From a bacterium (GTDB lineage: Bacteria > UBA8248), in NCBI GenBank assembly GCA_965219955.1, contig OZ244799.1, positions 4,096,001-4,160,000 on the forward strand: 64,000 nt of DNA, written 5' to 3'. This document shows positions 10,603 through 52,059 of this stretch, piece after piece. The position numbers were made by a program, and so were the translations under genes. The notes below the pieces were generated by a model, which worked only from the letters and a program-made list of their open reading frames with translations, was not told the DNA's origin and did not search any database. Every line of letters starts with the position of its first letter. Position 1 is the first letter of the stretch.

Positions 10603-10815
10603 GCGAGGATTGTGCGTTTGGTTTCCGAGCGAGCCATGCGGGCAAAGTAGAGAGCGTTTTTCTTGGTGCCGCGAGATCAGTTTGCTTCAAAGGTGCGTCA
10701 AGAATATAAAACATCTATGGTTTTCTGAAAAAGACAGCCTCTAACTTCTACAAGACCTGAAAAGATATCATCAGAGCATCGAGCGCCGCCGGAAGTCAGT
10801 GCTTAATCGGGATGA

Positions 10816-12177: not shown

Positions 12178-12253
12178 ACCGTTCATTTCTGATTCACGAA
12201 AACGGAGTTCGTGAATCAAGATCACGACGATTTTTCTGTTGTTATTCTCCCCC

Positions 12254-12958
12254 CTACCTCTTCCACTTCACGAAATCCAGCCACCAGGTCTCCCGCACCG
12301 CGTTCCCCAGATTCGGCCGCATGGCGGCGCTTCGGGGCGTGCCGTAGGCGGCTTCCTCCCAGGCGTCCGTGGTCGGGATGGCCGGGTCTTCCATGTCGTA
12401 GAGCGCGATGATGCGGCGCGCGCCCGTCCTGGTCTCCTGAATTTCCGCCTCCGCCGTCGCCCCGCCGGTGGCCTCGGATTCGAGCTGATACACGCGCCCG
12501 CGCGTCATGCCTTGGACCTCATACAAACGCTCCAGGTGTTCCTCGCGGTACCAGGAGAGCATCTCCTCTTTCATCTCCTCGCTCTCGGGATTGGGACTCA
12601 CCATGTAGAGCCAGGGCGCATCGTAGCGGTGCGGCTCGCCGATAGTGGCTTGTAAGCTGTAGACGGCGCGCTCGGCATTGTTGATGAAGGCCATGCACTT
12701 CTTGGTCCACGGCGAGGGGTTGTCTCTGGATTCTTTGTAGTAATCGCTCGTAAACGCCGCGAGTGTATCCCCCTCGAAGGTGCAGAGGATGTTGTGGTTC
12801 GCGTTCTTGTCCACCGCGTTGTAGCGGTAGCCGACGCGGAAGCCGGGGCCGTCCATCCGGTCGGTCGAGTGCTCGCAGTTGTGCCACTTCCTGAATTCTT
12901 CGGTGTTCTCGGAAGCGACGTTCAGCCAGATGGCGACGAGCGCCTGGGTTGGGTTCAT
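12254..12958 (-). CDS. EthD/DUF4286-like dimeric alpha-beta barrel protein (two domains)
   Basis: Repeated W-H/Y-xx-EH...G pattern (KWHNCEHSTDRMDGPGF; SWYREEHLERLYEVQG). Confidence 0.6.
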   Translation of the reverse strand: MNPTQALVAIWLNVASENTEEFRKWHNCEHSTDRMDGPGFRVGYRYNAVDKNANHNILCTFEGDTLAAFTSDYYKESRDNPSPWTKKCMAFINNAERAVYSLQATIGEPHRYDAPWLYMVSPNPESEEMKEEMLSWYREEHLERLYEVQGMTRGRVYQLESEATGGATAEAEIQETRTGARRIIALYDMEDPAIPTTDAWEEAAYGTPRSAAMRPNLGNAVRETWWLDFVKWKR

Positions 12959-12971
12959 CCCGAAAGTCTCC

Positions 12972-14405
12972 TTATTCGATGCCCGCGAGGCGTTTTGCAT
13001 AATCGATGGCGGGGGCGACCTCGTGTTCGCGCCAGATGGTCATCTTCTCGGCCTCGATGCTGCCCTCGGCGTGAATCGCGAGCACGGCCTGGTAGCCCGC
13101 GAAGTCGGACGCGGTGATCTCCGCGATCAGGTTCATGAGCCTGAGGCGCTCTTCGGTCGACGCGGCGGGCGAGGCGCCCAGGTATTTGTCGATGAGTTCG
13201 GCGAGCTTCGGGTCGTCCATGTCCTCCGCACTCGGCCCCGTGACGAGCAGCCCCCCGGCGATGTCCTGCACCCACGCGAGCGCCTGGTGGTAGCCGGTGG
13301 CGAAGTGGAGCTTCGCGATGTTGATGATCTCCGCATTCGGCACGGCGACGCCGTCCATGACCTTGCACTCCCTCGCGGCTTCTCGCGTCATGCCCCGGCA
13401 GATCTGCGCGTAGGAGATGAGCTTGGCGAGCTTGTCGCGCACGTGGCCCGCGCGCAGGATGCCGTTGTACTCCGCCATGAGGTGCGACGCGCCCACGAAC
13501 AGGTCCACGAGCGGCAGCTTGTAGCTCACGGCGGTGAAGCGGTGGAACTCGACGAACGTCTTGGCCAGCGGCCCGGCCATCTCCACCTCGCCGTTTAAGA
13601 ACACGCGCTCCCAGGGGACTTTCACGTCGTCGAAGACGGTGAGCGTTTCCATCATCTTGTGTTTGCTCGAAATCGGGTTTTCGAAATCCGTTCCCTTCCG
13701 GCCGCCGTAGCCGCTCGCCAGCATGGTGAGGCCCGGCGCGTTGGCGGGCACGGCGCAGGCCACCGCATACGCCTCGTCTCCCGCGCGCATGTTCCGCGTG
13801 GGCAGCACGATGATCTCGTGCGCGTTCGTGGAAACCGAGGTGTGCACCTTGGCCCCGCGCAGGGTGATCCCCTCCTCATCCTCGGCCGCCACGCGGACGT
13901 AGTAATCGGGGTGCGCCTGATCGCCGGGGCCTTTTCCCCTGTCTCCTTTCACGTCGGTCTGGGCGACGGCGACGGCGAGGTCGTTGTCGCGGCAGTGCTC
14001 GTGGAATTTCCGGACGCGCTCCAGGTAGCTCGTGCCCATATTCTTGTCCATGTAGGAGGCGAGCAGGCGGAGTGCGAACAGCGCGTCGGTCCCGATCTCC
14101 TTGATGAGGACGACGAGGGTGCCGCCAAGGGCCGTGGCGCGCTCGATCAAGGCGCTTCTTTTCAGGAGATCGTCCGCGTTCTCGGGGATGTGGTAGTAGC
14201 GCGAATAGGGGCCGCCTGCGCCGTCGACGAGAGCGAGTTCTTTATCCTTCTCGTCTTCGGCCATCTCGTAGTCGATGGCGGCGTGATCGACCGCGATGCC
14301 GATGACGGGGTGGGCGGCCACGTCCTCCACCCGCTCGCCCCGGTAGTAGACGACGCGGCCGTCATTCAGGCTTTGTTTGTATTCACTCGGACTCATGAGC
14401 GGCAT
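12972..14405 (-). CDS. HpaB / 4-hydroxybutyryl-CoA dehydratase family flavoprotein
   Basis: YKQSLNDGRVVYYRGERV, AQTDVKGDR, GAKVHTS, VFDDVKVPWERVFL, HAEGS motifs. Confidence 0.88.
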   Translation of the reverse strand: MPLMSPSEYKQSLNDGRVVYYRGERVEDVAAHPVIGIAVDHAAIDYEMAEDEKDKELALVDGAGGPYSRYYHIPENADDLLKRSALIERATALGGTLVVLIKEIGTDALFALRLLASYMDKNMGTSYLERVRKFHEHCRDNDLAVAVAQTDVKGDRGKGPGDQAHPDYYVRVAAEDEEGITLRGAKVHTSVSTNAHEIIVLPTRNMRAGDEAYAVACAVPANAPGLTMLASGYGGRKGTDFENPISSKHKMMETLTVFDDVKVPWERVFLNGEVEMAGPLAKTFVEFHRFTAVSYKLPLVDLFVGASHLMAEYNGILRAGHVRDKLAKLISYAQICRGMTREAARECKVMDGVAVPNAEIINIAKLHFATGYHQALAWVQDIAGGLLVTGPSAEDMDDPKLAELIDKYLGASPAASTEERLRLMNLIAEITASDFAGYQAVLAIHAEGSIEAEKMTIWREHEVAPAIDYAKRLAGIE

Positions 14406-14564
14406 GGCGCTTTCCTCCAGGCTCAAAGCCGCGCCCTCGGGTGCGGCGAAATGTGATTTTAGAGAGGGTATCTTCTTTCGCGATTCGGTGAAACGCCGCC
14501 CCGCCGGAATCAGGCGAAAAGAGGGCCGCTCTCGCTTTTATGGCGTGGACGGCTCGGGAGGGGA

Positions 14565-15090
14565 GTGTTGAAAAAGTCCTGATGAAGGAGGGTTTGACGC
14601 AACCGAGGAGGGGTGGTTTTGTAGGTAGCGCTCCCTTCTTGGGAGCGCTACAGACATGCGGCCCTTGTAGTGGGCAAAAAAATCAGGGTCGCATATATGC
14701 GACCCCTACACACAAACAAATTTTCCTCTCGGGGTTTATCAACAAGCCCCTTTGAGGGTGATTGCTGACCGGTGGGAGAAGAATTTCACTCCCCCCTTGA
14801 GAGGGCTGTTGAAAAACCTTCGTGATGGTTTTGTAGGGACAACCCTCCGTGGTTGTCCTTCTGTTAGGACAGGCACGGAGGCCTGTCCCTACGGGACAGT
14901 GGGGTTTTGTTCGTCATTCCGGCGAAAGCCGGAATCCATTTGCTTTGTCTTTGTTTTTTCTTTTCTGATCGATTCGCGCCGATGACGAGGAGATGAAAAG
15001 CCGGCGTATTGTCATTCTGCTTGAAAATGGATTCCGGCTTTCGCCGGAATGACGGCAAACCCGGCATTGCAGGCTTTTTCAACAGCCCCG
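14565..15090. repeat. Intergenic repeat mosaic (GTTGAAAAA/TTTTCAACA ends, GTAG-REP doublets, family A pair)
   Basis: REP doublet 14833-14892; A pair 14913-15053; segment ~14673-14730 nearly identical to ~24645-24700. Confidence 0.85.
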
Positions 15091-15103
15091 GTCGGTTCCG
15101 CCT

Positions 15104-15355
15104 TTAAGCGAGTTCGCTCAGCTTTCCTTCCTTGTCGTAGGCCTGAAGCTGCGGGAAGCCGCCGATGACCTCGTCGTCGATGACGATCTGGGGCACCGAC
15201 TTGCCGCCGGTGCGCGCCATCATGGCGTCCCATTCGGGCGTGCCGCCGAAGACGAGGTGCTCGGTCCATTCGAGACCGCGCTTTTTCAATAAATTCTTCG
15301 CGGCCAGGCAGAAGGTGCAGGGCTCGGTGGTGTAGACTTCGATGCTTGCCGCCAT
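15104..15355 (-). CDS. grxC: Glutaredoxin 3-like
   Basis: CTFC active site, SVPQI, IGGF motifs. Confidence 0.85.
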   Translation of the reverse strand: MAASIEVYTTEPCTFCLAAKNLLKKRGLEWTEHLVFGGTPEWDAMMARTGGKSVPQIVIDDEVIGGFPQLQAYDKEGKLSELA

Positions 15356-15436
15356 TTTTCTCTCCATGAAGACGGTATGGATGGGTGTAGCCGACTCGTC
15401 CATAAAATAGCAAAACGGGGATGAATCGTCATCCGG

Positions 15437-15985
15437 CGGGGTTGTTGAAAAAGCCCTGGTCGGCGACCTCGGACAGGCACAGGGGCCTGTCCCTACAAAA
15501 CCGAACACAACAATACGAACCCGTAGGGGCGGCCCCCCGTGGCCGCCCTGCCCTAATGGCCGCATGTGGTCCGTTATTGGCCGTCATTCCGGCGAAAGCC
15601 GGAATCCATTTTTATGCCTTTTGCCTTTCGTCAGGGTTTCTGCGCATCGGTGGGGAATGAAACGCCGTCGTTGATTCACTCTCATCCGCAAATGGATTCC
15701 GGGCAATCCCTCCCTCCTTGGTCGGCATTGATTGCCGGAATGACGAACAAAGCCACACCGCCTCATCCTGAGTAGGCGCGTAAGCGCCGTATCGAAGGAT
15801 GCCCTGTTGCCACGGCGCGAGCCCTTCGCCCTTCGATACGCCGCCTTCGGCGGCTACTCAGGGTGAGGTTGATATGGCGGTATGTAAGTCGATGGGAACG
15901 CCCCGCTCTTGGAACCGGGTTTTTCAACAACTCCCTCAGGGGGGGAATGAATCCTCCCTGCTGAATTGGAATAACCCTCAAGGGG
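15437..15985. repeat. Intergenic repeat mosaic
   Basis: GGGGTTGTTGAAAAAG start, REPs 15471-15550, A pair 15583-15744, B pair 15762-15867, TTTTCAACAACTCC end. Confidence 0.85.
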
Positions 15986-16070
15986 GCGGGAGTGTCCGCC
16001 ACATTCCAAAACAGGGCGTTCGCGGCGTCTTGCGCAACGGAAAACCGGCGTCTTCCGCCTCGGGAAATCG

Positions 16071-16153
16071 TTGACACGAAAGAGAAAAGAATATATATCT
16101 TTTCGCCCTGTTGTTTAGGAAACATATTTTTGCAGTCATTCTTTGCTAAACAA
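16071..16153 (+). promoter_or_regulatory. Putative promoter and operator of the polyamine operon regulator
   Basis: TTGACA at 16071, AT-rich -10 region ~16092-16101; palindrome TGTTTAGGAAACA 16112-16124; TTGTTTAG/CTAAACAA inverted pair. Confidence 0.45.
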
Positions 16154-16255
16154 CCGGATCGACCGCCCGGCTCCTCTAGACAACAGATGGAATCGCGCGG
16201 CCGGACCCCCCGAACGGGAGCGTTTTCCCGTTCCGAAGCGGAGCGAACCGGACAG

Positions 16256-16861
16256 ATGGGTGATGAGGTGGAACACGGGGAAAAATCGAACAGGACCGGC
16301 ATGAGCCGCTCCGTCGAGAGCCTGCTGCGCGTGGGCGCGCGCATCCGGGGCCTGCGCCGCTCCCACGGCCTGACGCAGGAGGAACTCGCCCATCGCTCGA
16401 ACCTGACCAAGGGGTTCATCTCCCAGTTGGAGCGCGACCTGACCTCCCCCTCGCTCGAGAGCCTGCTGGAGATTCTCGAAGCGCTCGACACCGACATCGT
16501 CCGCTTCTTTCAGGGCCACGAGGAGGGGCGAATCGCGTTCGGTCCGATGGATTCGCGCCACGCGGCGACCTACGGGGAAGTGAGTGCCTTCGAGCTCATG
16601 GTGCCCGGAACGGCGAACCGCAACATGGAGCCCGCCCTCGTGACGATGGAGGCGGGCGAGTCGATTTACGAGGACGCCCACGCGGGCGAGGAGTTCGGCT
16701 ACGTCCTGGAGGGCAAGGTTCAGATCACCTACGGGGAGAGGCGCGCCAAGGCGAAAAGGGGCGAGTGGTTTTATTTCGCCTCGGAAAGAAACCACCGGGT
16801 GGCGAACCCCTACAAGAAGCGCGCGAGGCTCCTTTGGGTCTCCACGCCGCCGAGTTTCTGA
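16256..16861 (+). CDS. XRE-cupin transcriptional regulator (PuuR-like)
   Basis: GLTQEELAHRSNLTKGFISQLERDLTSPS HTH plus HAGEEFGYVLEG cupin; start uncertain (16256 or 16301). Confidence 0.88.
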   Translation: MGDEVEHGEKSNRTGMSRSVESLLRVGARIRGLRRSHGLTQEELAHRSNLTKGFISQLERDLTSPSLESLLEILEALDTDIVRFFQGHEEGRIAFGPMDSRHAATYGEVSAFELMVPGTANRNMEPALVTMEAGESIYEDAHAGEEFGYVLEGKVQITYGERRAKAKRGEWFYFASERNHRVANPYKKRARLLWVSTPPSF

Positions 16862-16913: not shown

Positions 16914-17351
16914 TTGAATTCCCTGGGCCGCCACCTGCTGGCGGAATTCTATGACTGCGAAACCGGGGCCCTGAACGATCCCGCGCAGATCGAGCGGTTG
17001 ATGAACGAGGCCGCGCGCCTGAGCGGGGCCACCGTCGTCCAGAGCGTGTTCCACACCTTCAGCCCCCACGGGGTGAGCGGGGTGGTCGTGGTGGAGGAAA
17101 GCCACCTGGCCGTGCATACCTGGCCCGAGCACAACTACGCGGCGGTGGACTATTTCTCCTGCGGGGAAGTCGATTGCGACGCGGCGGTGCGCTATCTCGC
17201 GGAACACCTCGCGCCCGGGCGCGTGGAGACGAGAGAGGTCCCGCGCGGCGTCATCGAAGAACGCGAGGCGTCGCTCGACGCGCCGTTCGCATCGAACGGA
17301 GAGGGAGAGGCCTCCCGCGCCTTCAAGAACGGAGAGGGGCGCGAACGATGA
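16914..17351 (+). CDS. speD: S-adenosylmethionine decarboxylase proenzyme (class 1B)
   Basis: [29 protein letters not shown] pyruvoyl cleavage motif. Confidence 0.92.
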
Positions 17352-17815
17352 TCGTCGCGACGCCGACCAGGTATTTCCTGGCGCACGGGAGTGCCGAGGG
17401 CGTGACGGAGCTCAACGCCTTCGACGCGGCGCTTCTGCGCGCGGGCGTGGGCGACACGAACCTCGTGCGCGTGAGCAGCATCCTGCCGCCCGGATGCGAG
17501 GGGGTGGAGCCTCCCCCGCTGCCGCCGGGCGCGCTCGTGCCGGCGGCCTACGCGTCCGTGACTTCCTCGGTACCCGGCGAGGTGATCACCGCGGCGGTGG
17601 CGGTCGCCTTGCCCGAAGACGAGGCCCGCCCCGGCCTCATCATGGAGCATCACGGCCACGCCCCGCGCGCGCGTGTGGAAGAGGAGGCCCGGCGCATGGC
17701 GGAGGCGGGCATGGCGTATCGCGGAACGATGGTCCGGGAGATCCGGAGCGTCGCCGCCGAGCACGTCGTGATGAATACCGGCGCCGCCTTCGCGGGAGTC
17801 ATCCTTTGGAACTGA
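17348..17815 (+). CDS. pdaD: Pyruvoyl-dependent arginine decarboxylase
   Basis: [27 protein letters not shown] motif; ATGA overlap with speD. Confidence 0.9.
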
Positions 17816-17829
17816 CGCGCGCCCCCTTC

Positions 17830-18687
17830 ATGCCCGAAAGCCCTCCGCCCAAGCCGGCGACCTGGTTCACCGAGTACCACGGACCCGGCACCGGCCTCAC
17901 GATGAAGGTGCTGCGGACGCTCTATTCGGAGAGGAGCGCGTTTCAGGAGATCACCCTCGTGGAGACCGAGGATTTCGGGCGCGTCCTCCTGCTCGACGGG
18001 ATCATCCAGACCACCGAGCGCGACGAGTTCGTCTACCACGAGATGCTGGTCCACGTGCCCCTGTGTATGCATACCGATCCAAAGAACGTCCTCATCGTCG
18101 GCGGAGGCGACGGCGGCTGCGTACGCGAGGCGCTGCGCCACGAGACGGTGGAGAAAGTGACGCTCGTCGAGATCGACGGGATGGTGGTGGAGTGCTGCCG
18201 CGAGTTCCTGCCGTCCATCGCGGGAGGCCTGAACGACCCCCGCGTGGAGGTGCGGATAGAGGACGGGGTGAAGTTCATTGAGGGCAAAGAAGCAGCCTTC
18301 GACGTCATCCTGGTCGATTCCACGGATCCCGTCGCCATGGCGAATCCGCTCACGCAGGTCTCCTTTTTCCGCGCGGCCAAGCGCGCCCTCAGGCCCGGCG
18401 GCCTCTACGCCGCGCAGACGCAAGGCCCCGTGTTCGAGGGTCACAGGATGCGGCGCATCACGAGGCGCATCCGGCGGGTGTTCCCGGGCGCGGCGACGTA
18501 TCTCGCGAACGTGCCGACCTATCCGGGGGGGATATGGTCTTTCGCGCTCGCGCCCGAATCGAGGAGAACGGACGTCCGCGCGAAGCCGAGGCCGATGCCG
18601 CAGGCTGAGAAGACCCATTACTACTCCCCGGAAGTCCATGAGGCCGCCTTCACGCATCCCCCCTACGTGGCGGAGATTCTCGGCTGA
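17830..18687 (+). CDS. speE: Polyamine aminopropyltransferase (spermidine synthase)
   Basis: LLDGIIQTTERDEFVYHE, GGGDGG, DSTDP motifs. Confidence 0.93.
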   Translation: MPESPPPKPATWFTEYHGPGTGLTMKVLRTLYSERSAFQEITLVETEDFGRVLLLDGIIQTTERDEFVYHEMLVHVPLCMHTDPKNVLIVGGGDGGCVREALRHETVEKVTLVEIDGMVVECCREFLPSIAGGLNDPRVEVRIEDGVKFIEGKEAAFDVILVDSTDPVAMANPLTQVSFFRAAKRALRPGGLYAAQTQGPVFEGHRMRRITRRIRRVFPGAATYLANVPTYPGGIWSFALAPESRRTDVRAKPRPMPQAEKTHYYSPEVHEAAFTHPPYVAEILG

Positions 18688-19544
18688 TGGGCGGGGAGGC
18701 CCGCCCGCGTTTTCTCTGCGCCGAAACCCCTTTCGAATCAGCGCGCGTCGTTCTCCTGGGGTGCCCCTTCGATGAGACGGCGAGCTTCCGCCGGGGCGCG
18801 CGTTTTGGGCCTGACGCCATCCGCGAAGCGTCCGATTGCCTCGAAACCTACAGCCCGCATCTGGATAAGGATTTGAGCGACGCCGCCCTGTGCGATATGG
18901 GCGACGTTGATTTTGTGTCCGACGATACGGAATCCGTTCTCGATTCCATCCGCTCCGAAGCTTTAGGGGTATTCCGGGCGGGCAAGCGCCCCATATTCCT
19001 GGGCGGTGAGCATCTGGTGAGCCTGCCCGCCGTGGAGGCGGCGCTGGGCGTCTTCCCCGGTCTTGCCGTATTCCAGTGGGACGCCCACGCGGACTTGCGC
19101 GACGACTACCTCGGCGGGCGCCTCTCGCACGCCTGCGTGATGCGGCGCATCCTGGAGCTTGAGGGCGTCGGGCCGCTCCATCAGTTCGGCGTCCGCTCGG
19201 GTACGCGCGAGGAGTTCGAATGGATGCGCGCGAACGACACCATGCGGCTCTTGAGTCCTGAGGCCGTATCGGCGGCGCTTCAGGAGACGGGCGATAGCGC
19301 CGTATACCTCACCCTCGACGTGGACGTCGTGAACCCCGGCGAGATGCCCGGAACCGGCAGCCCCGAACCCGGCGGCCCGGGGCTTGATGCGCTCATCGAT
19401 TGCATCCGTGTTCTCGACGCCTCGGGCGCGCGCATCATCGGCGCCGACGTGGTGGAACTCGCGCCGGAATGGGATCCCTCGGGTGCCAGCGCCGTCGCCG
19501 CCGCGAAGATAGTCCGAGAATTGACGCTCGTGCTGGGAGCGTGA
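18687..19544 (+). CDS. speB: Agmatinase / ureohydrolase
   Basis: GGEH, DAHADLRD, SHAC, LDVDV, GTGSPEPGG motifs. Confidence 0.92.
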   Translation: MGGEARPRFLCAETPFESARVVLLGCPFDETASFRRGARFGPDAIREASDCLETYSPHLDKDLSDAALCDMGDVDFVSDDTESVLDSIRSEALGVFRAGKRPIFLGGEHLVSLPAVEAALGVFPGLAVFQWDAHADLRDDYLGGRLSHACVMRRILELEGVGPLHQFGVRSGTREEFEWMRANDTMRLLSPEAVSAALQETGDSAVYLTLDVDVVNPGEMPGTGSPEPGGPGLDALIDCIRVLDASGARIIGADVVELAPEWDPSGASAVAAAKIVRELTLVLGA

Positions 19545-26356: not shown

Positions 26357-27337
26357 CTATTTCTTCATCGTCATGGCCTTGATGAGCTGCGTGTAGCCGT
26401 CGAAGTTCGGCTTTCTGGTTTTTTCATAATCCGCTCCGCTCATGAACACGACGTTCTCGCCGATGCTGCGCATGAAGCGCTTGAAGGACTTGTTCTTCGT
26501 GAGCTTCTCGAAAGCGCCCCGGAGCTTCTTCAGCCTGTCGGCGGGCGTCTTGGAGGGCGCCATGAAGATGCGGTCCATCGTGAAGCCCACGCCCTTGTAG
26601 CCGAGTTCCGTCGTGGTCGGGACCTCCTTGAAGTCCTTGTCCTTCGAGAGGCGCATATCGCCCGTGAGCGCGAGCACGGTGACCTTGCCTGCCTTCTTGT
26701 GGGGGCGAAGCTGGGTCGGGAAGGCGATGCCCACGTCGTCCTGTCCCGAGAGGACGGCGCGCAGCGCGGGGCCGCCGCCTTTATGCGGAATGAAGTTCAC
26801 CTTGATGCCCGCCGCGCGGACGAACTGCATGGAGGGCACGTGGCCCGCGCCCCAGACGCCGCTGTGGCCCCAGTTGACCTTGCCGGGGTTTTTCTTGGCG
26901 TAGGCGACGAATTCCTTCATGTTCTTCCACGGCCTGTTCGAGAGCGAGAAGAACACCGGCTGTCCGTGGTTGATCTTGGCGACGGCCGAGAAATCGCGAA
27001 GCGTGTCGAAGGGCACCTTGCGGGTCTGCGGCACGAGCTGGTCGAAGCCGTTGTGGGTGAAGAGCAGGGTGTAGCCGTCCGGCTTGGCCTTGGCGACGAA
27101 GCCGGTGCCCTTCATGCCCGCGCCGCCGGGCACGAGCTTCACGACCATGGGCTGGCCGAGTATGTCGGCGATGATGCTGGTGATGCCGCGCGCGTGGAGG
27201 TCGTGGCTGCCGCCCGCGCCCACGGGCAGGACGAGCGTGATGGGCCTGTCCGGATAGGCCGCCGTGCTCGCGGAGGGGGCTCCCAGCGCGACGACGAGGG
27301 CCAGCGCGGCCAGGATGGCGAAGAAGCGTTTTTTCAT
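26357..27337 (-). CDS. tctC: Tripartite tricarboxylate transporter substrate-binding protein (Bug/TctC)
   Basis: Signal peptide, YPDRPIT, GAGGSHD, PDGYTL, HKGGGP motifs. Confidence 0.9.
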   Translation of the reverse strand: MKKRFFAILAALALVVALGAPSASTAAYPDRPITLVLPVGAGGSHDLHARGITSIIADILGQPMVVKLVPGGAGMKGTGFVAKAKPDGYTLLFTHNGFDQLVPQTRKVPFDTLRDFSAVAKINHGQPVFFSLSNRPWKNMKEFVAYAKKNPGKVNWGHSGVWGAGHVPSMQFVRAAGIKVNFIPHKGGGPALRAVLSGQDDVGIAFPTQLRPHKKAGKVTVLALTGDMRLSKDKDFKEVPTTTELGYKGVGFTMDRIFMAPSKTPADRLKKLRGAFEKLTKNKSFKRFMRSIGENVVFMSGADYEKTRKPNFDGYTQLIKAMTMKK

Positions 27338-27363
27338 GATGATCTCCCTTGATGAATGTGCCC

Positions 27364-28869
27364 TCAAGGGGCGGCGGACCCCCTGGTTCGCCGCCACATC
27401 GGGGCAAGAATGAGATATGCGATCCAGACCAGCGCCGCGATGAGAAAGGCGGACGCTATCGGACGTTGTACGAACAGGTACGAGAACGGAGCCCCCTTCG
27501 CGTAGAGCATCGACTGGCTCAAACGATACTCTATCGGCTCGGCCAGCACGAACGCGATAATCAGGGGCGCCAGGTCGAACTTGAACTTCCTTAAAATATA
27601 GGCGCAAACGCCGATGATGACCATCAGGATCACGTCGGTGTTCGCCCCGGTGGAGAGCGTGCCCACGAAGGCGAGCGCCACGATGACGGGGATGAGATAC
27701 GCCTTTTTGAACTGGATGGCGCGCGCGAAGGGTTTCAGAAGAACGTAGCCCAGGAAGAAGAACAGCACGTTCGCCAGCACCATCGTGAGGATGAGGGCGT
27801 ACATGAGCGCCCCTTGTTCCTGGAATATCTGGGGGCCGGGCCGCATGCCGTGCGCCACGAACGCGCCCAGCAGGATGGCCGTCACGTTGTCCCCGGGGAT
27901 GCCCAGCGTCAGCAGGGGGACGAGCGTGGGGCCGTTCACGGCGTTGTTCGCCGCCTCGGGCGCCGCGACGCCGTCGAGTTCGCCCTTGCCGAAATTCTCC
28001 GGGTTCTTGGAGGCGCGCTTCGCCGCGCTGTAGCCGATGAAGGCGGCGACGACCTGCCCCACGCCCGGCACCATGCCGATGCCCGTCCCGATGGCGGTCG
28101 AGCGCAGGATGGAGCGGATAGACGCCTTGAACTCGCGCCAGCGCAGGCGCTCTCCCGCCTTGGCGAGGTCGACGTGCTCGCTGATGAAGCGCACGGTGCG
28201 CGTTTCGACTGCTTCGAGTACCTCGGGCATCGCGAAGATGCCGATGGCCAGCGGGATGAGGGGGATGCCGCCGCTCAGGGCTTCCAGGCCGAATGTCATT
28301 CGCGTGGCGCCGGTGGTGGCGTCGGTGCCGATGAAGCCCAGCCCCATGCCGATGCAGGCGGCGATGGCGCCCTTGAGTCCTGAGTCGCTCGATACGCTCG
28401 CGATGAGCACGAGCGAGAAGATGATGACGGCGAACACCTCGGGCGGGCCAATCAGGAGCGTGATGATGGCGATGGGGCCGATGAGCGCCAGGGTGAAGAT
28501 GTCGGACAGCGTATCGGCGATGGTGGAGGAGAAAAGCGCCATCTCGAGCGCCTTTCGCCCCTCGCCCTTGCGCGTGAGCGCGGGGCCGTCGAACGTGGTG
28601 GCGATGGATGCGCCCGTGCCCGGAATGCCGACCAGGATCGCCGGGATGCTGCCCCCGTAGATGCCGCCCTTGTAGATGCCGATCAGGAACGGGATGCCGA
28701 GCATGGGTTCGAGCTTGAAGGAAATCGGAAGCAGGACCGACATGGCGAGGATGGTGGTGAGGCCCGGCATCGCGCCCACGAACATGCCGATGGTCAGCCC
28801 CGCGCAGATGTAGAGATAGGTGTCCACCCGCATCAGCAGGGCGAAGGCTTGAAGGAAGGCGTCGAGCAA
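27364..28869 (-). CDS. tctA: TTT large permease
   Basis: GAMPGL, GGSIPAILVGIPG, APEAANNA, LTLGIPG motifs. Confidence 0.93.
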   Translation of the reverse strand: MLDAFLQAFALLMRVDTYLYICAGLTIGMFVGAMPGLTTILAMSVLLPISFKLEPMLGIPFLIGIYKGGIYGGSIPAILVGIPGTGASIATTFDGPALTRKGEGRKALEMALFSSTIADTLSDIFTLALIGPIAIITLLIGPPEVFAVIIFSLVLIASVSSDSGLKGAIAACIGMGLGFIGTDATTGATRMTFGLEALSGGIPLIPLAIGIFAMPEVLEAVETRTVRFISEHVDLAKAGERLRWREFKASIRSILRSTAIGTGIGMVPGVGQVVAAFIGYSAAKRASKNPENFGKGELDGVAAPEAANNAVNGPTLVPLLTLGIPGDNVTAILLGAFVAHGMRPGPQIFQEQGALMYALILTMVLANVLFFFLGYVLLKPFARAIQFKKAYLIPVIVALAFVGTLSTGANTDVILMVIIGVCAYILRKFKFDLAPLIIAFVLAEPIEYRLSQSMLYAKGAPFSYLFVQRPIASAFLIAALVWIAYLILAPMWRRTRGSAAP

Positions 28870-28881
28870 GGCGGGGTCTCC

Positions 28882-29460
28882 CTATTTCCCGAGAAAAATG
28901 CCGGAGAGGAACTTCATGATGGCGTCCTCGACGACGGCGATGGTTTCGTAATCGCTCCTCGGCAGCGAGATGAGCAGCAGCCTCTCGAAGATGAAGCGCA
29001 CGACGATGGGCATGAGAACGGCCACGGGCGCGACGACCCATATCTGCCGGATGCCCAGATACCAGATGACCGCCCCGGCCATCAGAAGCGTCGAGAGGCC
29101 GTAGCCCAGCGCCGACACGAGGAGGGAATAGGCGGCGATGATGACGATCATCGCCACCCCGCGCCGGAAGCGCGCCGCCTCGCCCGGGTTCGCGTCGGAT
29201 TGGATGTGGCGCGCCCTTCGCCAGGCGTCCAGCAGGTAGAACGCGCACAGGGCGGCCAGCACGGCGAACGCGAGCCTCGGGAAGAAGACGGGCGTGAGGC
29301 GCAGGAAATCCTGCGCGGAGGAGATGCCGCCCGTCGCGATCAGGTAGGGCATGAAGACGGCGAACCCCACGGAGAGGAGCATCATCGCCGCGGCCAGGTA
29401 GATCTCCAGGCGCAGCATCGTGGGGCTTGGAGCGTTCGTAGATTCGTTGTCCGAAGCCAT
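28882..29460 (-). CDS. tctB: TTT small permease
   Basis: Four to five TM segments, FFP motif, position upstream of tctA. Confidence 0.85.
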   Translation of the reverse strand: MASDNESTNAPSPTMLRLEIYLAAAMMLLSVGFAVFMPYLIATGGISSAQDFLRLTPVFFPRLAFAVLAALCAFYLLDAWRRARHIQSDANPGEAARFRRGVAMIVIIAAYSLLVSALGYGLSTLLMAGAVIWYLGIRQIWVVAPVAVLMPIVVRFIFERLLLISLPRSDYETIAVVEDAIMKFLSGIFLGK

Positions 29461-29649: not shown

Positions 29650-30033
29650 ATGAAAATCATCAATTCCATGAGCGTGGACAAGGACAACGCCTACGAGCCT
29701 CCCTACTCCATCATGTGGGGGGTGAACGACGAGACGACGGACACCAGGGTCATGACCATGCAGCGCACCATCATCCCCCCCGGCGGGAAGAACAAGATGC
29801 ACACCCACACGTGCGACGCGGTGTTTTACGTGAACAAGGGGCCCATTTACGTCTATTGCGGCGACCCGGAAAACCCCGAGAAAATCCTCGTCGAGTCCGG
29901 GCATTTCTGCTACGCGCCCGCGGGCGAGCCGCACGGGCAGGAGAACCCGAGCGAGACCGAGCCCGCCGAACTCATCGCCACCTACGGGAACTGCTCCCAC
30001 CAGGACAAGGCGGGCACGACCTTCGTGCAGTAG
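29650..30033 (+). CDS. Cupin domain protein
   Basis: PPGGKNKMHTH...APAGEPHGQEN; GGAG RBS. Confidence 0.85.
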   Translation: MKIINSMSVDKDNAYEPPYSIMWGVNDETTDTRVMTMQRTIIPPGGKNKMHTHTCDAVFYVNKGPIYVYCGDPENPEKILVESGHFCYAPAGEPHGQENPSETEPAELIATYGNCSHQDKAGTTFVQ

Positions 30034-30065: not shown

Positions 30066-30815
30066 ATGGATCGAGGAATCTGGGCGTCCTGGTACGACCT
30101 GCCCGAGGATAAGAAAGAAGACTACTGCGCCTGGCTGCACGGGCACCACCTGCCGTCGATGCTGCGGCGGGCGGGGTTCCTGTGGGCGGCGCATTACGAG
30201 GTGGCCGGCGAGGGGGCGCAGATGGAGCAGGTGAAGAACACGGCGCTCACCTACACCGCGCCCGGTGAACTGCCCGGCGGCACGGGGTACGTGCTGCTCT
30301 TCGGGGCGGTTTCGCCGCACGTCTTTTTTGACCCCACGCTCGCCGACGTCGCGAAAGAATACGACGATGAGACAAGGGCGATGCTGGGCCTTCGCGAGGG
30401 GTATCGAGAGTGCGTCTTCAGCGAAGAAGCCCGCGTCGACGGCCCCGACGTCGCCGCGAGAGGCCCCGGCATCACGCCCGGCCCCGCGATCCAGATGGGG
30501 CAGTTCATCTCCCGGGACGCGGAGGCCGAGCACGACCTCGGCGCGTGGTACGCGCAGTACCGCCTGAAGTTCATGGAGGGGATGCCCGGCTGCATCGGCG
30601 CGAGAAAGCTGCTCTCCGCCGCCGGCTGGGCCAAGCATTCGATCATGTACGAGTTCACCTCGCTCGAGGCGCGGGAGGCGGGCTTCCAGAAGCACGAGAG
30701 CCTCTCGCTCGATGAGAGCGGCTGGTCGGGCCGGGTGGTGAGGTCGCTCGTCCATGCCCCCGGCAGCCCGAGCGTGGGCCGCCGCCTGTGGCCGCCGGTG
30801 AACCGAGCCTTATAA
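30066..30815 (+). CDS. EthD/DUF4286-like dimeric alpha-beta barrel protein
   Basis: True start ATG 30066 (MDRGIWASWY); WLHGHHLP..GF and WYAQY...MPG repeats. Confidence 0.6.
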   Translation: MDRGIWASWYDLPEDKKEDYCAWLHGHHLPSMLRRAGFLWAAHYEVAGEGAQMEQVKNTALTYTAPGELPGGTGYVLLFGAVSPHVFFDPTLADVAKEYDDETRAMLGLREGYRECVFSEEARVDGPDVAARGPGITPGPAIQMGQFISRDAEAEHDLGAWYAQYRLKFMEGMPGCIGARKLLSAAGWAKHSIMYEFTSLEAREAGFQKHESLSLDESGWSGRVVRSLVHAPGSPSVGRRLWPPVNRAL

Positions 30816-30837
30816 CCCGTATCGGGAGGAATGATTC

Positions 30838-31521
30838 ATGGCGCAACTACCGATTCTGAGTGATGAAGAGGCAGGCCCCGAGGCCACCGTGGTGTTCGAC
30901 GCGAGCCGCAAGATGTTCGGCCGCGTGGCGAACGCCATCCGCGTGAGTTCGGCCAGCCCGAGGATGCTCCAGCCGCTGTTCGGCTTTCTGATCTCGCTGT
31001 GCCGGGCGGAGATCACCGACGTGCTGGACGCGAAGACGAAGGCGCTCCTGATCCTCAAGACCTCGATGGAAAACGGGTGTAAGTACTGAACGGCCCACAA
31101 CGTCACGTTCGGTCGAGCGTGCGGGCTGTCGGATGAGCAGATTGACGCCGTGAGGGACGACGCGTATCAGGATTCGGACCTGTTCTCAGACGCCGAGAAG
31201 GCGGCCATCGCCTGGGCGTATCACCTCACGAAATACACCTTCGCCCAAAACCCGGAAGCTCTCGAGAACATGAAGAAGCACTACGATCACGCCCAACTCG
31301 TCGAGGCGACGCTGGTGTCGGGCTATTTCAACATGTGGAACCGCTTCACCGACGCGCTCGAGACCGACCTCGAAGGCGATGACCAGATGACCCTGTTCAC
31401 CAAATCCGCCGTGATCGACAAACAGGACCTGGCCGATTTCATGAACGAGTGCTGGTGGGCGAAAGAGGGCGCAACTGAAGAAAAACAAGCGCTCCCGGCG
31501 TCCGCCGGTTCTGAGGGGTGA
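30838..31521 (+). CDS. AhpD/carboxymuconolactone decarboxylase family selenoprotein (CxxU), 227 aa with Sec84
   Basis: ORFs 30838-31089 and 31150-31521 are one frame interrupted only by TGA 31087-31089: ENGCKY-U-TAH...GLSDEQIDAV...EKAAIAWA...YFNMWNRF; SECIS-like hairpin follows. Confidence 0.85.
31090..31129 (+). promoter_or_regulatory. Bacterial SECIS-like hairpin
   Basis: Lower stem ACGGCCC/GGGCUGU; upper stem CACGUUC/GAGCGUG; loop GGUC begins 21 nt after UGA. Confidence 0.7.
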
Positions 31522-31571
31522 TTTTTTAGGTTCACGAACGGCGCAGAATGTCTTCCCGGGGAGGACACACC

Positions 31572-32999
31572 ATGAGCACAGATGATATCTGCCGGCTGGA
31601 GCTTCACGAGATTTCTGAAGGAATCGGGAAGGGCGAGCTTTCTCCCGTGGAAGTGGTCGAGGCGTTCCTGCGCCGCATCGATTCGCTCAATCCCACCATC
31701 CTGGGCTTTCTCGAAGTGACGGCGGACGCCGCGCGGGCCGAGGCTGAGCGCGCGCAGGAGGAAATCGCCGCCGGCCGCAGGCTGGGTCCGCTGCACGGGG
31801 TTCCCTACGGGGTCAAGGACATCGTCGACACGGCGGGCGTGCGGACGACGCGCGGGTCGAGTTTCTTCCGCGACAACGTGCCCGAGGAGGACGCGGAGTG
31901 CGTCGCCCGCTTGAAGCGCGCCGGCGCGATTCTTCTCGGTAAATGCCATACCCAGGAGTTCGCCTCGGGGCCGCTGAGCAAAAACGCCCACTTCGGCACG
32001 GCGCGCAACCCGTGGGACACCGAGCGCATGACGGGAGGCTCGAGCACGGGGTCGGGCGCATCGGTCGCCGCCGGCCTTTGCCCCGCCGCCATCGGGACGG
32101 ACACGGGCAGCTCCATCCGCGGGCCTTCGGCGCTTTGCGGGCTCGTGGGGCTCAAGCCCACCCACGGGCGGGTGAGCCTGCGCGGCGTGTGTCCCAACTG
32201 CCTGAGCTACGACCACGTGGGGCCGATAGCGCGCTCAGCGCGCGACGCCGCTCTCTTCTTGCAAGGGATGGCGGGCTACGACGCGAGGGACCCCTACAGC
32301 CGCGACGTGCCGGTCCCCGATTTCTCCGCCCGGCTCGGGGAGGGCGCAGCGGGTTTGAGGGTGGGCCTTTGTCCCGGTCTTTCGGGCGATTTCGAGGCGG
32401 ACGCCGAAGTGACGCAGGCTTTCGAGCGGGCCGTCGGCGTGTTCCGGGAGTCGGGAGCGAGTGTCGAGACGCTGCCCTTCGACGACGCGGAGCGCCTGAT
32501 GGCTGTGAACCGCGTCATCATCCAGTGCGAGTTCGCCGAGTTCCACAGGCCGCTCTATGAACAGGACCCCGACGGCTACGGCCCCTCCACGCGCGAGCGG
32601 GTGGAGGCGAGCCTCGCGGGCGCCGACCTGGACGAGTACATCCGCGCGGGGCGCGAGCGGGAAGTGCTGCGGCGCAAGGTGCTCAGTCTGTTCGAGGGGG
32701 TGGACGTCATTCTGACGCTCGCCCTGCCGTGCATCGCCCCGCGGCTCGACGACTTGATGGCCCACATCAACGGCGAGGAGGTGGATTACTCCCTCGGCCT
32801 CACCATGCCGTACCTCACCCACCAGAACCTGACGGGGTTCCCGGCGGCGGTGGTTCCCACCGGGTTTTCGGAAAAAGAGGGCATGCCCATGTCGCTTCAG
32901 GTGATAGGGCGGCCCTGGGAGGAGGCGGAGGTGCTGCGCGCGGTCCACGCCTACGAGACGGCGACGCCCGAACTGCGGAACCGGCGGCCCGAGTTGTAA
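31572..32999 (+). CDS. Amidase signature family protein
   Basis: GPLHGVPYGVKD, GGSSTGSG, GTDTGSSIRGP motifs. Confidence 0.93.
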   Translation: MSTDDICRLELHEISEGIGKGELSPVEVVEAFLRRIDSLNPTILGFLEVTADAARAEAERAQEEIAAGRRLGPLHGVPYGVKDIVDTAGVRTTRGSSFFRDNVPEEDAECVARLKRAGAILLGKCHTQEFASGPLSKNAHFGTARNPWDTERMTGGSSTGSGASVAAGLCPAAIGTDTGSSIRGPSALCGLVGLKPTHGRVSLRGVCPNCLSYDHVGPIARSARDAALFLQGMAGYDARDPYSRDVPVPDFSARLGEGAAGLRVGLCPGLSGDFEADAEVTQAFERAVGVFRESGASVETLPFDDAERLMAVNRVIIQCEFAEFHRPLYEQDPDGYGPSTRERVEASLAGADLDEYIRAGREREVLRRKVLSLFEGVDVILTLALPCIAPRLDDLMAHINGEEVDYSLGLTMPYLTHQNLTGFPAAVVPTGFSEKEGMPMSLQVIGRPWEEAEVLRAVHAYETATPELRNRRPEL

Positions 33000-37130: not shown

Positions 37131-38120
37131 CTACGCCAGAGAACCTCCGCAGGAGGAGCCGGCCCCCGCCGTGCAGCCGAAGCAATGATCGCCCAGCAGA
37201 ATTTCCCGGCCCAGCAGTTCGGCGGGTGCGACGTCCCAGAGTTTCAGGGGCGTCCCGTTACCGAGGGACATGTCGAGCATCTGGTTGAAGTCGCAATCAT
37301 ACAGGACGCCGTCCCATCCCACGCTGATGAGATTTCGGCACATCAGGTCGGGCAGCGTCCCGGGGTTGTAGGCTTCGCGCAAGGTGGTCATATAGGAATC
37401 CAGCTTGCCGCGCACCTTCAGGTAGCTGGCGAAGCGGGTGATGGGCATGTTGGTGATGGTGTAGAGATGGTGAAAGCGGATGCCGTAGCGCTTGAGGAGT
37501 TCGCGCTTGTAGTCCGCCTCGAGCGTTTCCTGGGGCGGCGGGAGATTATCGTCCACGGGGTTGTAGACGAGGTTCAAGGCCAGGTCTCCCGGAGGGCCGA
37601 ACCCCGCCTCGTTCAAATCGCGGAGCGCACGGATGGATTTTTCAAAGACGCCGTCTCCGCGCTGGGTGTTCACGTTTTCCTCGAGATAACAGGGCAGCGA
37701 GCAGATGAGCTCCACGCGGTTCTCGCGGTAGAAGTCGATCAGGTCCTCCTGGCCCGGCTCGTAGACGACCGTGAGGTTGCAGCGGACCATCACGTGGCGG
37801 TCCTTGCGGCGGGCTCTGGTGACGATGCGCCGGAAATGGGCGTTGAGTTCGGGCGCGCCTCCCGTGATGTCGACGTTGGGGATCTGCGTGTCCTCGAGCC
37901 ATTCGATAATGCGGCTCGCCGTCTCCCCGGTCATGATCTCCTTGCGATGCGGGCCCGCGCCCACGTGGCAGTGCGCGCATGTCTGGTTGCAGTATTTGCC
38001 CACGTTGATCTGCAGCGTGGAGAGTTCGGTGCGATCCAGGTGAGGAGCGTCCTCCCGGATGTGGTCCTGGAATTTTAATGCCCCGTTCGAGGACAGGGGC
38101 AGGGAAATGTGTGCGGGCAT
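37131..38120 (-). CDS. arsS: Radical SAM protein, ArsS/DUF3641 family (Cys form)
   Basis: LQINVGKYCNQTCAHCHV, DITGGAPE, YDCDFNQM, HCFGCTAGAGSSCGG motifs. Confidence 0.85.
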   Translation of the reverse strand: MPAHISLPLSSNGALKFQDHIREDAPHLDRTELSTLQINVGKYCNQTCAHCHVGAGPHRKEIMTGETASRIIEWLEDTQIPNVDITGGAPELNAHFRRIVTRARRKDRHVMVRCNLTVVYEPGQEDLIDFYRENRVELICSLPCYLEENVNTQRGDGVFEKSIRALRDLNEAGFGPPGDLALNLVYNPVDDNLPPPQETLEADYKRELLKRYGIRFHHLYTITNMPITRFASYLKVRGKLDSYMTTLREAYNPGTLPDLMCRNLISVGWDGVLYDCDFNQMLDMSLGNGTPLKLWDVAPAELLGREILLGDHCFGCTAGAGSSCGGSLA

Positions 38121-42473: not shown

Positions 42474-42667
42474 GGCGGCGGGGCCGGTCTCGATAACGGC
42501 GGGAGGGTTTGCGGTTTTCGTAGGGCTCGGACATATATGTCCGACTGTGTGTTCTCCCGTTTTACCGTGTTTTCGTCCGAGCGTTTGGGGCGATGGGGTG
42601 GACGCCTCCTTCCGGCGGATTAGAATGTGGCGAGACGACGTCACACACCGCCCGGAAGGAGACGACC

Positions 42668-43693
42668 ATGGGAGGAGTCTACATCATCGGGGTCGACTTG
42701 GCGAAACACAGTTTTCAACTCCACGGCGCGTGGGCGGACGGGCGGGTCGCGTTCCGCAAGAAGCTGACGCGGGCGAAGGTGCTGGAGTTTCTGTCGTCGC
42801 AGCCTCGATGCGTGGTGGCGATGGAGGCGTGCGCGAGCGCGCACTACTGGGGGCGCGAGGTCGGCAAGCTCGGCCATGAGGTTCGGCTCATGCCGCCGGT
42901 CTACGTGAAGCCCTACGTGAAGCGCCACAAGAACGACGCGGCGGATGCGGAGGCGATATGCGAGGCGGCCACCCGGGCGACGATGCGCTTCGTGGCGGTG
43001 AAGAGCGAAGCGCAGCAGGGGTGTGGGATGGAGTACCGCACGCGGGATTTGCTGGTGCATCAGCGCACGCAGGCGCGCAACGCGCTGCGCAGCCACCTGG
43101 CGGAGTTCGGGGTCGTCGAGCGGCAAGGGCCCGTGGGCCTCACACGGCTGGCGGCGGCGGTTCGGGGAGCGGAATCGGGCCTGCCCGAGGAGGTCCGGGA
43201 GCTGGGCGAAGTTCTGCTCGCCCAGATTGTCGGCCTCGATGCGAAGGTCCGGGAGTTGACCGGACGGCTCCGGGCGAGCGCATACGCGGACGAGGAGGCG
43301 CGGCGTCTGATGAGCATCCCGGGTGTTGGTCCGATTACGGCGTCGGCGATCCGGGCGTTCGCGCCGCCGGTGGAGAACTTCCGTCGGGGCCGTGACTTCT
43401 CGGCCTGGCTGGGTCTGGTTCCCCGGCAGCACTCCACGGGGGGCAAGCCCCGTCTGGGGGGCATGTCGAAGATGGGCCAGCGCGACGTGAGGCGTCTGTT
43501 GATATCGGGCGCGATGTCGGAGATACGCTGGGCGGGGCGTCGCCGGAAGCCGCCGTGTCCGTGGCTGGCGCGGATGCTGGCGCGCAAGCCGAGGAAGGTG
43601 GTGGCGGTGGCGCTGGCGAACCGGATGGCGCGCATCGCGTGGGCGCTGATGCGGAACAAGGATGTCTACAGGGAGCCGGCGCCCCTCGCCTGA
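42668..43693 (+). CDS. IS110 family transposase/recombinase
   Basis: GVDLAK, MEAC, KNDAADA (DEDD) and WLGLVPRQHSTGG motifs; GAAGGAG RBS. Confidence 0.95.
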   Translation: MGGVYIIGVDLAKHSFQLHGAWADGRVAFRKKLTRAKVLEFLSSQPRCVVAMEACASAHYWGREVGKLGHEVRLMPPVYVKPYVKRHKNDAADAEAICEAATRATMRFVAVKSEAQQGCGMEYRTRDLLVHQRTQARNALRSHLAEFGVVERQGPVGLTRLAAAVRGAESGLPEEVRELGEVLLAQIVGLDAKVRELTGRLRASAYADEEARRLMSIPGVGPITASAIRAFAPPVENFRRGRDFSAWLGLVPRQHSTGGKPRLGGMSKMGQRDVRRLLISGAMSEIRWAGRRRKPPCPWLARMLARKPRKVVAVALANRMARIAWALMRNKDVYREPAPLA

Positions 43694-51453: not shown

Positions 51454-52059
51454 ATGAATGACGAGACATTCGCCGAGGTCATCTCTCCCGCCGGCATCCC
51501 CAGGATACCGGATGAGGCCTTGAAGCCCAGACCCGACACGCTGGAGGGCGCTACTCTCGGGATTTTGGAGAACAACAAGGAATTCTCCGACTGGGTGCTG
51601 GACAGGGTGCTTGAGAGGCTTCGAGAGTCGGTCGGCGTCAGGGAAGTCGTCCAGCGCAGGAAGCATCACCTCGCCCAACCGGCATCCCCTGAAATTCTCG
51701 AGGAGTTGAACGCGCGCTGCGACGCCGTGTTGGTCGGCGTCGGGCACTGAGGCTCATCCACCTCGTGGAGTGTCCGCGACGCGGTCCGGCTCGAGCGGCT
51801 GGGAAGCCCCGCCTGCGTCATCGTGAGCCGGGGCTTCAGCCACAGCGGCCGCGCGATAGCGAGGAGGCAGGGCTACGGCGGACTGCCCGTCGTCGAGATG
51901 GACCATCCCCTGGCCGCTCCCGAAAGGGAAGCGCTTCATCCCAAGGCGGACGCCATCGTGAATGAGGTCGTCCACGCGCTCACGGGCGACGCGGGGGAGC
52001 TCCGGGCCGAGTATGCCGAGAAGAAGTTCCGGGGTCCTCGGAATCTCTGCCCGAAATAG
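51454..52059 (+). CDS. UGSC-family selenoprotein (UGSS variant), 201 aa with Sec99
   Basis: ORFs 51454-51750 and 51823-52059 share a frame with a single TGA 51748-51750: VGVGH-U-GSSTSWSVRDAVRLERLGSP...LPVVEMDHP. Confidence 0.82.

Follow-up and report, generated by a model that had tools for sequence, protein, structure and literature searches.

An in-frame TGA very probably read as selenocysteine in an AhpD/CMD-fold gene of a UBA8248 bacterium

Introduction

When a TGA codon interrupts an otherwise intact reading frame, is it a stop, a mistake or a selenocysteine (Sec)? This question is raised by a 64,000-nt stretch of DNA from a bacterium of the UBA8248 lineage (contig OZ244799.1 of assembly GCA_965219955.1, positions 4,096,001 to 4,160,000). 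We refer to the whole of this stretch as "the window" and count positions from its first base. At 30838-31521 on the forward strand, standard annotation reports two hypothetical open reading frames (ORFs) where there is very probably a single gene. We conclude that this gene encodes, with high probability, a 227-residue thiol-selenol oxidoreductase of the AhpD/CMD fold in which the UGA at codon 84 would be decoded as Sec.

The observations which carry this conclusion are the frame itself, the pairing of Sec and Cys codons at one site, a conserved and covarying hairpin just after the UGA, and constraint at synonymous sites. The decoding by SelB and the chemistry of the protein are most likely those of the standard bacterial model and the AhpD family, respectively, and are taken up after the alternatives have been weighed.

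One frame with a single interruption

The frame contains 227 codons and one internal TGA, at 31087-31089. Using translation table 11, the same frame is split into ORFs at 30838-31089 (83 aa) and 31150-31521 (123 aa). In the AhpD/CMD CxxC motif, the TGA takes the place of the second Cys (ENGCKY-TGA-TAH); between the two ORFs lie 20 codons, which encode TAHNVTFGRACGLSDEQIDA. When the frame is read through, the Pfam CMD family (PF02627) matches at 38.6 bits (cut-off 23) over residues 50-127, i.e., across the TGA. Two further features characterise the subfamily to which the protein belongs: a conserved His three residues after the Sec (U-T-A-H; His87 at 31096-31098) and a C-terminal extension of approximately 40 residues with a near-invariant CWW.

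A first-pass annotation, made from the window sequence alone, had proposed that the two ORFs are one frame, interrupted only by a TGA at the second Cys of CxxC, and that the codons between them are typical of the family. Both statements are exact for the 30838-31521 frame, as is its reading of the motif.

Codon 84 across homologues

A protein search returned 16 relatives. The full-length proteins (P0002-P0010) are 45-58% identical to the window protein, and all contain NGCxYCxGH, with a Cys aligned to the TGA. Another relative, P0011 (135 aa, 71% identical), covers only the part after the TGA, a hint that public annotation divides close relatives likewise. As this subfamily stays below the cut-off of every NCBIfam (seleno)protein model, the mis-split probably recurs in many genomes.

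Codons were compared using one scan of genome contigs, which found 112 relatives. The best 80 were kept (L001-L080), and all locus counts in this text refer to those. The codon aligned to position 84 was located in all 80 loci: it is TGA in 63, TGC in 16 and TGT in one, with the protein conserved before and after it. Among the TGA forms are 21 close relatives of 70-97% identity (labelled Nitrospinota, Tectomicrobia, Nitrospinaceae or "bacterium"), three more distant Nitrospinota-type loci, and a 39-locus clade of marine-type metagenome-assembled genomes (MAGs) which is mainly proteobacterial (Alpha- and Gammaproteobacteria, SAR324, Acidimicrobiales). The first-pass annotation had named the occurrence of UGA or Cys at this site in homologues as a check on its proposal; both states were found, and all 21 close relatives have TGA.

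A maximum-likelihood tree built with the codon-84 site masked (81 rows: 64 Sec and 17 Cys) requires only one or two changes of the Sec/Cys label, and 16 of the 17 Cys forms make up one well-supported clade. Among the 21 close relatives, the 20 codons after the TGA contain 15 distinct synonymous codon variants versus 8 non-synonymous ones. As the variants are mostly synonymous, this stretch looks translated.

A hairpin that accompanies the TGA

Whether 48 or 64 nt are folded from the UGA onwards, a two-stem structure results. Counted from the U, the lower stem pairs nt 5-10 with 37-42 and the 7-bp upper stem pairs nt 18-24 with 29-35, leaving a GGUC loop at nt 25-28. The spacing from UGA to loop is therefore 21 nt; in bacterial Sec insertion sequence (SECIS) elements it is usually 16-37 nt.

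It is the comparison of TGA forms with Cys forms, not the fold of any one sequence, that is decisive. An alignment of the 60 nt which follow the UGA in the window and the 63 TGA loci has no gaps, and the loop is GGUC in 61 of these 64 sequences and GGCC in the other three. Among the 57 distinct TGA-form sequences, the seven upper-stem pairs show standard pairing in 94.7% of cells, a value that none of 500 shuffles reached and that compares with 20.8-55.1% for slid registers. Compensatory changes are also present in the TGA forms: pair 19-34 has an AU-to-GC exchange and pair 18-35 an AU/CG exchange, the latter dividing two clades and so perhaps a single event. Pairing across the same upper-stem columns is only 55.5% of cells in the 17 Cys forms, no better than shuffles (189 of 500 as high).

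Synonymous sites agree with this pattern. Third positions of codons +6, +7, +8 and +10 have entropies of 0.17, 0, 0.38 and 0 bits, respectively, in 41 distinct distant TGA forms, versus 1.26-1.62 bits for the same codons in the 17 Cys forms, even though the encoded residues are identical. In the flanking codons, third positions vary freely in TGA and Cys forms alike. Because pairing, covariation and frozen synonymous sites are all confined to the TGA forms, the alignments indicate that an RNA structure is under selection exactly and only where codon 84 is TGA.

Two more proposals of the first-pass annotation can be judged here. The two-stem hairpin it drew after the UGA, with a GGUC loop 21 nt downstream, is upheld by both the fold and the comparative evidence. 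Its central idea, a Sec-containing protein of the AhpD/CMD family, is strongly supported by TGA in 63 of 80 loci versus Cys in 17, together with a hairpin that is conserved and covarying in the TGA forms only.

Genetic code and a second selenoprotein candidate

TGA is the ordinary stop of 18 of the 34 Pfam-supported genes in the window, making it the most used stop, and it also ends the codon-84 gene itself. On this basis the code is standard, i.e., TGA is not reassigned genome-wide. A scan for TGA-bridged coding frames based on GC content at third codon positions (GC3) found two in the 64 kb: the gene in question and a frame at 51454-52059. The same type of scan on L001-L024 returned, besides the target gene, mostly neighbouring genes which share a frame and few other hits.

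The second frame is a candidate selenoprotein gene of the UGSC family, approximately 20 kb from the AhpD-like gene and likewise divided by table 11. It matches Pfam UGSC at E 1e-46 and scores 123.3 bits with NF041046, "UGSC family (seleno)protein" (cut-off 125). A 7-bp hairpin with the loop GUG at nt 23-25 follows its UGA.

An ArsS-type radical SAM gene (TIGR04167, 438 bits; 37131-38120, reverse strand), whose family has Sec forms, was considered as a third selenoprotein gene and rejected: it is a Cys form (...GSSCGGSLA) with a non-TGA stop.

The paper on BSepDB reports three Nitrospinota-named MAGs (GTDB phylum UBA8248) with 48-54 selenoprotein genes each, placing them in the bacterial top ten (PMC13326102). 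Together with the second selenoprotein gene candidate in 64 kb, these counts suggest that selenium demand is high in this lineage.

Weighing the alternatives

Several results speak against a selenoprotein with the role that we propose. The only tRNA in the window is a tRNA-Pro, so there is no tRNA-Sec in the 64 kb (Rfam at gathering thresholds gave only tRNA), and none was found in L001-L060, the loci covered by that scan (L061-L080 lie outside it). The window ORFs scanned include no member of the SelA, SelB or SelD families. Judged as a single sequence, the hairpin does not exceed shuffled versions in stability (z +0.52 over 64 nt, -1.38 over 48 nt). The Escherichia coli fdhF SECIS, used as a control in the identical shuffle test, reached a z of only -0.67, and because it too falls within its shuffles, the single-sequence stability test does not discriminate. 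Rfam has no match to the hairpin; even at permissive settings, IS1222_FSE at E 6.8 was the sole hit in 31040-31200. Neither the window protein nor any of 14 other family members scores as high as the cut-off of any NCBIfam (seleno)protein model: with TIGR01926 (cut-off 81.8) the window protein scores 38.7 bits and the others 33.3-60.4, and with NF053654 (cut-off 310) the scores are 57.2 and 41-69 bits. The upstream gene that we regard as the likely partner, which encodes 249 aa and which we call p249, was not detected at E <= 1e-5 in 28 of the 80 loci, at least two of which (L024 and L069) hold too little upstream DNA to tell. Finally, the functional part of our proposal (redox cycle, partner and substrate) draws only on family analogy and gene order.

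A window ORF with AIR-synthase domains (275-1303) was tried as SelD and rejected: it is a ThiL, scoring 288 bits with TIGR01379 (above cut-off) versus 75 bits with the selD model (cut-off 125).

How well do other explanations fare? An in-frame stop in a lone sequence resembles a pseudogene, and Cys-codon homologues exist in 17 of the 80 loci, so one could take the gene to be dead, or the TGA to be an assembly or sequencing error in what is really a Cys gene. This explanation is in practice refuted by the recurrence of the TGA in independent assemblies of several phyla (63 of 80), by protein conservation that goes on past the TGA (with downstream changes of 15 synonymous versus 8), and by a hairpin that is kept only where the TGA is present. 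Readthrough with a standard amino acid (Trp, Gly or Cys), via a changed code or a suppressor tRNA, would produce the same open frame, and an open frame cannot by itself identify the residue. We nevertheless consider such readthrough extremely unlikely: TGA is the most used stop in the window and also this gene's own, the only two TGA-bridged frames in 64 kb both have it at known Sec positions, the aligned residue in homologues is always Cys, and the TGA comes with a SECIS-type hairpin whose loop has the fdhF sequence.

It is also conceivable that the UGA simply terminates translation, yielding a peptide of 83 aa and, from its own start, one of 123 aa, or the former only, e.g., in a lineage that has lost its Sec machinery. 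The machinery was indeed not observed among the window ORFs and tRNAs or in the loci scanned for tRNA, the GTG at 31150 could start the second ORF, and public protein sets contain the C-terminal fragment P0011. However, the 20 codons from the TGA to that GTG encode conserved residues, including the invariant His87, and have evolved mostly synonymously, while the TGA is kept in 21 of 21 close relatives and the hairpin is paired across 64 TGA forms. The second TGA-containing selenoprotein gene in the window also argues against this explanation, as do the MAGs with the same NCBI label that are reported to have 48-54 selenoprotein genes (PMC13326102). Termination is therefore very unlikely, and Sec at codon 84 is the explanation which we carry forward.

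Probable partner gene and neighbourhood

Coordinates of the gene, its signals and its neighbours are given in Table 1. Gene p249 is found in 52 of the 80 loci, with Sec and Cys forms alike, and in 48 of these it lies on the same strand just upstream of the AhpD-like gene. Its product has no Pfam or NCBIfam match at threshold and no PDB sequence match at E <= 10. A weak DUF4286 signal is present in 9 of 20 p249 members (best E 8e-4), with the window protein at E 0.28. An internal duplication was considered and dropped (hhalign of the two halves, E 0.17, not significant). At least 1098 relatives of p249 exist, and among the 120 listed, every name given by the source is "hypothetical protein" and no Pfam domain is precomputed.

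Table 1. Positions of the predicted selenoprotein gene, its sequence elements and neighbouring features (window positions unless a locus is named)
Feature	Position	Strand	Remarks
Probable AhpD/CMD-fold selenoprotein gene	30838-31521	+	227 residues, predicted Sec at position 84, stop TGA 31519-31521; basis: frame, Pfam CMD, Cys homologues, 80 loci
Shine-Dalgarno-like GGGAGG	30824-30829	+	8 nt before ATG 30838; read from sequence
Redox motif C81-K-Y-U84-T-A-H87	31078-31098	+	C81, Y83, residue 84 (Cys in homologues) and H87 invariant in family alignment
In-frame TGA (codon 84), probably read as Sec	31087-31089	+	Aligned-codon comparison
Predicted SECIS element	31091-31128	+	Lower stem 31091-31096/31123-31128; upper stem 31104-31110/31115-31121; loop GGUC 31111-31114
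Partner gene candidate p249	30066-30815	+	249 aa, unassigned to any family; stop 22 nt upstream of selenoprotein start
Cupin gene	29650-30033	+	First of co-directional cluster; Cupin_2 E 4e-11; clade-specific, 21/80 loci (L001-L021 only)
Amidase-signature amidase	31548-32999	+	Nearest AtzE family, below cut-off; likely start ATG 31573, after GGGGAGGA; local neighbour
Divergent TTT transporter genes	26357-29460	-	tctB 28882-29460; tctA 27364-28869; tctC end 26357, start approximately 27350
PrdB/GrdB-like gene	L050:10737-11966	+	Same position in L042, L046-L048, L053, L059, L061-L063, L065, L066, L069-L071, L073, L075, L076, L078
UGSC-family selenoprotein gene candidate	51454-52059	+	TGA 51748-51750, motif GVGH-U-GSST; table 11 gives two ORFs

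The first-pass annotation had described a cupin - EthD-like - Sec-AhpD - amidase operon, and only part of this survives. The "EthD-like" label for 30066-30815 has to be given up, as there is no EthD match and only the weak DUF4286 signal; DUF4286 and EthD belong to a common fold class. The 249-aa gene itself is the only neighbour that is really conserved (52 of 80 loci): the cupin is restricted to 21 of 80 loci and, of the 16 loci which hold the amidase, only 4 have it next to the selenoprotein gene. In the other 12 it lies approximately 5.5 kb downstream. The one such gap examined, in L003, contains five opposite-strand Liv-type ABC transporter genes (10728-15455, reverse strand) between the selenoprotein gene and the amidase. 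The window, L006, L008 and L010 have no gap, with the amidase abutting the selenoprotein gene, and L015 has a short one.

The TTT transporter shows a broader association. TctA is encoded near the AhpD-like gene in 31 of 80 loci, and TTT genes lie just upstream in 5 of the 6 Cys-form loci examined. In three Cys forms (L025, L029 and L043), the pair sits directly within or after the tct genes (tctB-tctA-...-tctC clusters), alongside NAD(P)-dependent dehydrogenases, with L043 also having a cupin there. The link to the TTT transporter which the first-pass annotation drew recurs, and the proximity of TctA fits the handling of an imported organic acid, but the selenium-dependent catabolic pathway which it proposed can at most be suggested.

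In one clade the neighbourhood takes a different form. A PrdB/GrdB-like gene (Pfam GRDB) lies directly downstream in 19 Sec-form loci, 17 alphaproteobacterial and two labelled Acidimicrobiales. It has its own in-frame TGA in 17 of these 19, in the motif PVU-P-x-C-T or GVU-P-x-C-T, and some loci have two tandem copies. Neither the window nor any of L001-L024 has this PrdB-like cluster.

Other genes in the window

The window is rich in genes for the uptake and catabolism of organic acids, with TRAP, TTT and several ABC transporters. It also encodes two family III CoA-transferases (1559-2809 and 49410-50597, both forward) and a beta-keto acid cleavage enzyme (BKACE; 62383-63177, reverse). A polyamine run on the forward strand (16914-19544) comprises S-adenosylmethionine decarboxylase, spermidine synthase and an enzyme of the arginase/agmatinase family, and is preceded by a helix-turn-helix (HTH)-cupin regulator (15992-16861). 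An IS110-family transposase with DEDD_Tnp_IS110 and Transposase_20 domains is encoded at 42593-43693 (forward), and a 200-aa ankyrin-repeat protein at 8213-8815 (reverse). Ankyrin-repeat proteins are often noted in sponge-associated bacteria.

Proposed mechanism

The standard bacterial model makes decoding by SelB most likely. The mRNA hairpin, starting 4 nt past the UGA, would present its GGUC apical loop 21 nt downstream, and SelB with Sec-tRNA(Sec) would bind this loop and bring Sec to the ribosome in place of a release factor. In the resulting protein, Sec84 would replace the second Cys of CxxC, with His87 following it.

Redox chemistry is most likely by analogy with the AhpD family. Cys81 and Sec84 would alternate between a selenol/thiol pair and a selenenylsulfide, and the protein, as a redox enzyme or carrier, would hand reducing equivalents on to its substrate or to a partner protein. 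Gene order makes the upstream p249 the likely partner. Because p249 travels with Sec and Cys forms alike, often in or beside TTT transporter clusters, the AhpD-like/p249 pair probably acts on an organic acid taken up by the cell or on a reactive product of that acid, e.g., a peroxide, or gives protection from such a product.

A bolder version, which we think unlikely but worth stating, is that the AhpD-like CxxU protein and p249 constitute an undescribed two-component selenium-dependent redox module tied to organic-acid uptake by the TTT transporter. In one clade this module would be extended by the PrdB/GrdB-like UxxC protein, with the CxxU protein as the selenol electron carrier (the role of GrdA or PrdC form 1 in the reductases of clostridia), the imported compound as substrate, and reductive C-N or C-X cleavage as the reaction, all in aerobic marine bacteria. 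A variant of this idea is that the chemistry may be of the dehalogenase type, as in the CMD-fold debrominase Bmp8.

The selenoprotein call will itself not surprise a specialist. What the gene offers is a handle on a widespread and wholly uncharacterised probable partner, p249, and, in other lineages, a pointer to a gene pair of AhpD-like and PrdB-like selenoproteins, two of the most abundant ocean families. In the papers cited here, the majority of such families are said to lack functional characterisation.

Comparison with known systems

Sec forms of AhpD-like proteins are established, as the first-pass annotation had stated. The AhpD-like CxxU family was described by Zhang, Gladyshev and co-workers: 27 sequences were reported from the Sargasso Sea in 2005 (PMC1088965), and the Global Ocean Sampling (GOS) analysis of 2008 listed "AhpD-like 1" (COG2128, CxxU) as the fourth most abundant family, with 299 sequences, as well as a "UGSC-containing" family with 255 (PMC2398784). 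A 2026 review places the AhpD-like selenoprotein under TIGR01926 (PMC13188914). The window gene is a further member of this kind, known since 2005: the call is right but not new. It shares with the published family, as described there, the AhpD/CMD fold, Sec at the second CxxC position, common Cys homologues and abundance in marine bacteria. Because AhpD-like CxxU selenoproteins are already published, its group belongs to a known kind, of which it is perhaps a distinct subfamily, the comparison being with the published family's description. The subfamily's own marks are the His at +3 from the Sec, the C-terminal extension with CWW, and its own partner gene. The pairing of AhpD-like and PrdB genes was not found mentioned in the literature, including the accessible portions of PMC2398784, PMC1088965 and PMC13188914, which is not proof that it is unpublished.

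Profile comparisons agree with this placement. TIGR01926, "peroxidase-related enzyme", aligns with the protein from one end of the profile to the other (residues 4-176, profile positions 3-173 of 178), but at the curated cut-off the protein is a relative of that family, not one of its members. The best NCBIfam match is NF053654, "YciW-related (seleno)protein" (E 1.7e-15, residues 10-175), a family which also has an AhpD-like domain with Sec forms, yet is a different subfamily from that of the window protein.

Judged by sequence profile, the nearest proteins of solved structure (E 3e-22 to 4e-20) are Pseudomonas aeruginosa PA0269 (2ijc and 2o4d; E 3e-22), the CMD protein 7xw1 and Agrobacterium Atu0492 (2gmy), of which PA0269 and Atu0492 were deposited as hypothetical proteins. 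All three align their NGCxYC with the window motif. Unlike the window protein, they are only 145-165 residues long, are missing its first 40 residues as well as the C-terminal extension, and carry Cys where it has Sec. Their His also falls one position further along in the alignment (C-V-N-M-H in PA0269 versus U-T-A-H in the window).

Bmp8 is a CMD-fold enzyme that carries out reductive dehalogenation via its cysteines. The debrominase structures (6ohi and 6ohj) match over the full length (profile 9-180 to chain 16-183, E 4e-15), placing gCmYCksH on the CxxU-xx-H of the window protein. The match is weaker than that of PA0269, however, the residue is Cys rather than Sec, and no bmp-type neighbours were seen. 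The next profile matches after Bmp8 are several "peroxidase-related" AhpD-like proteins.

AhpD proper is a more distant relative: its core-domain model, TIGR00778, gives the window protein 13.9 bits (cut-off 27.8), and no peroxiredoxin or AhpC gene is among the ORFs scanned around the window gene. The AhpD/AhpC system of Mycobacterium tuberculosis is nonetheless alike in its fold class and CxxC-type site, and it provides a model for passing reducing equivalents to a peroxidase partner.

Of the RNA elements, the E. coli fdhF SECIS is the natural comparison. Both have a hairpin just after the UGA with a GGUC tetraloop on a stem topped by C-G or A-U. They differ in register, with the fdhF loop at nt 22-25 and the window loop at nt 25-28, i.e., one codon further. 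The upper stem in the window has 7 bp and, in the predicted fold, no bulged U, in which it differs from that of fdhF. At the level of gene order, the clade in which a CxxU gene stands next to a UxxC gene has a selenoprotein gene pair reminiscent of grdA-grdB.

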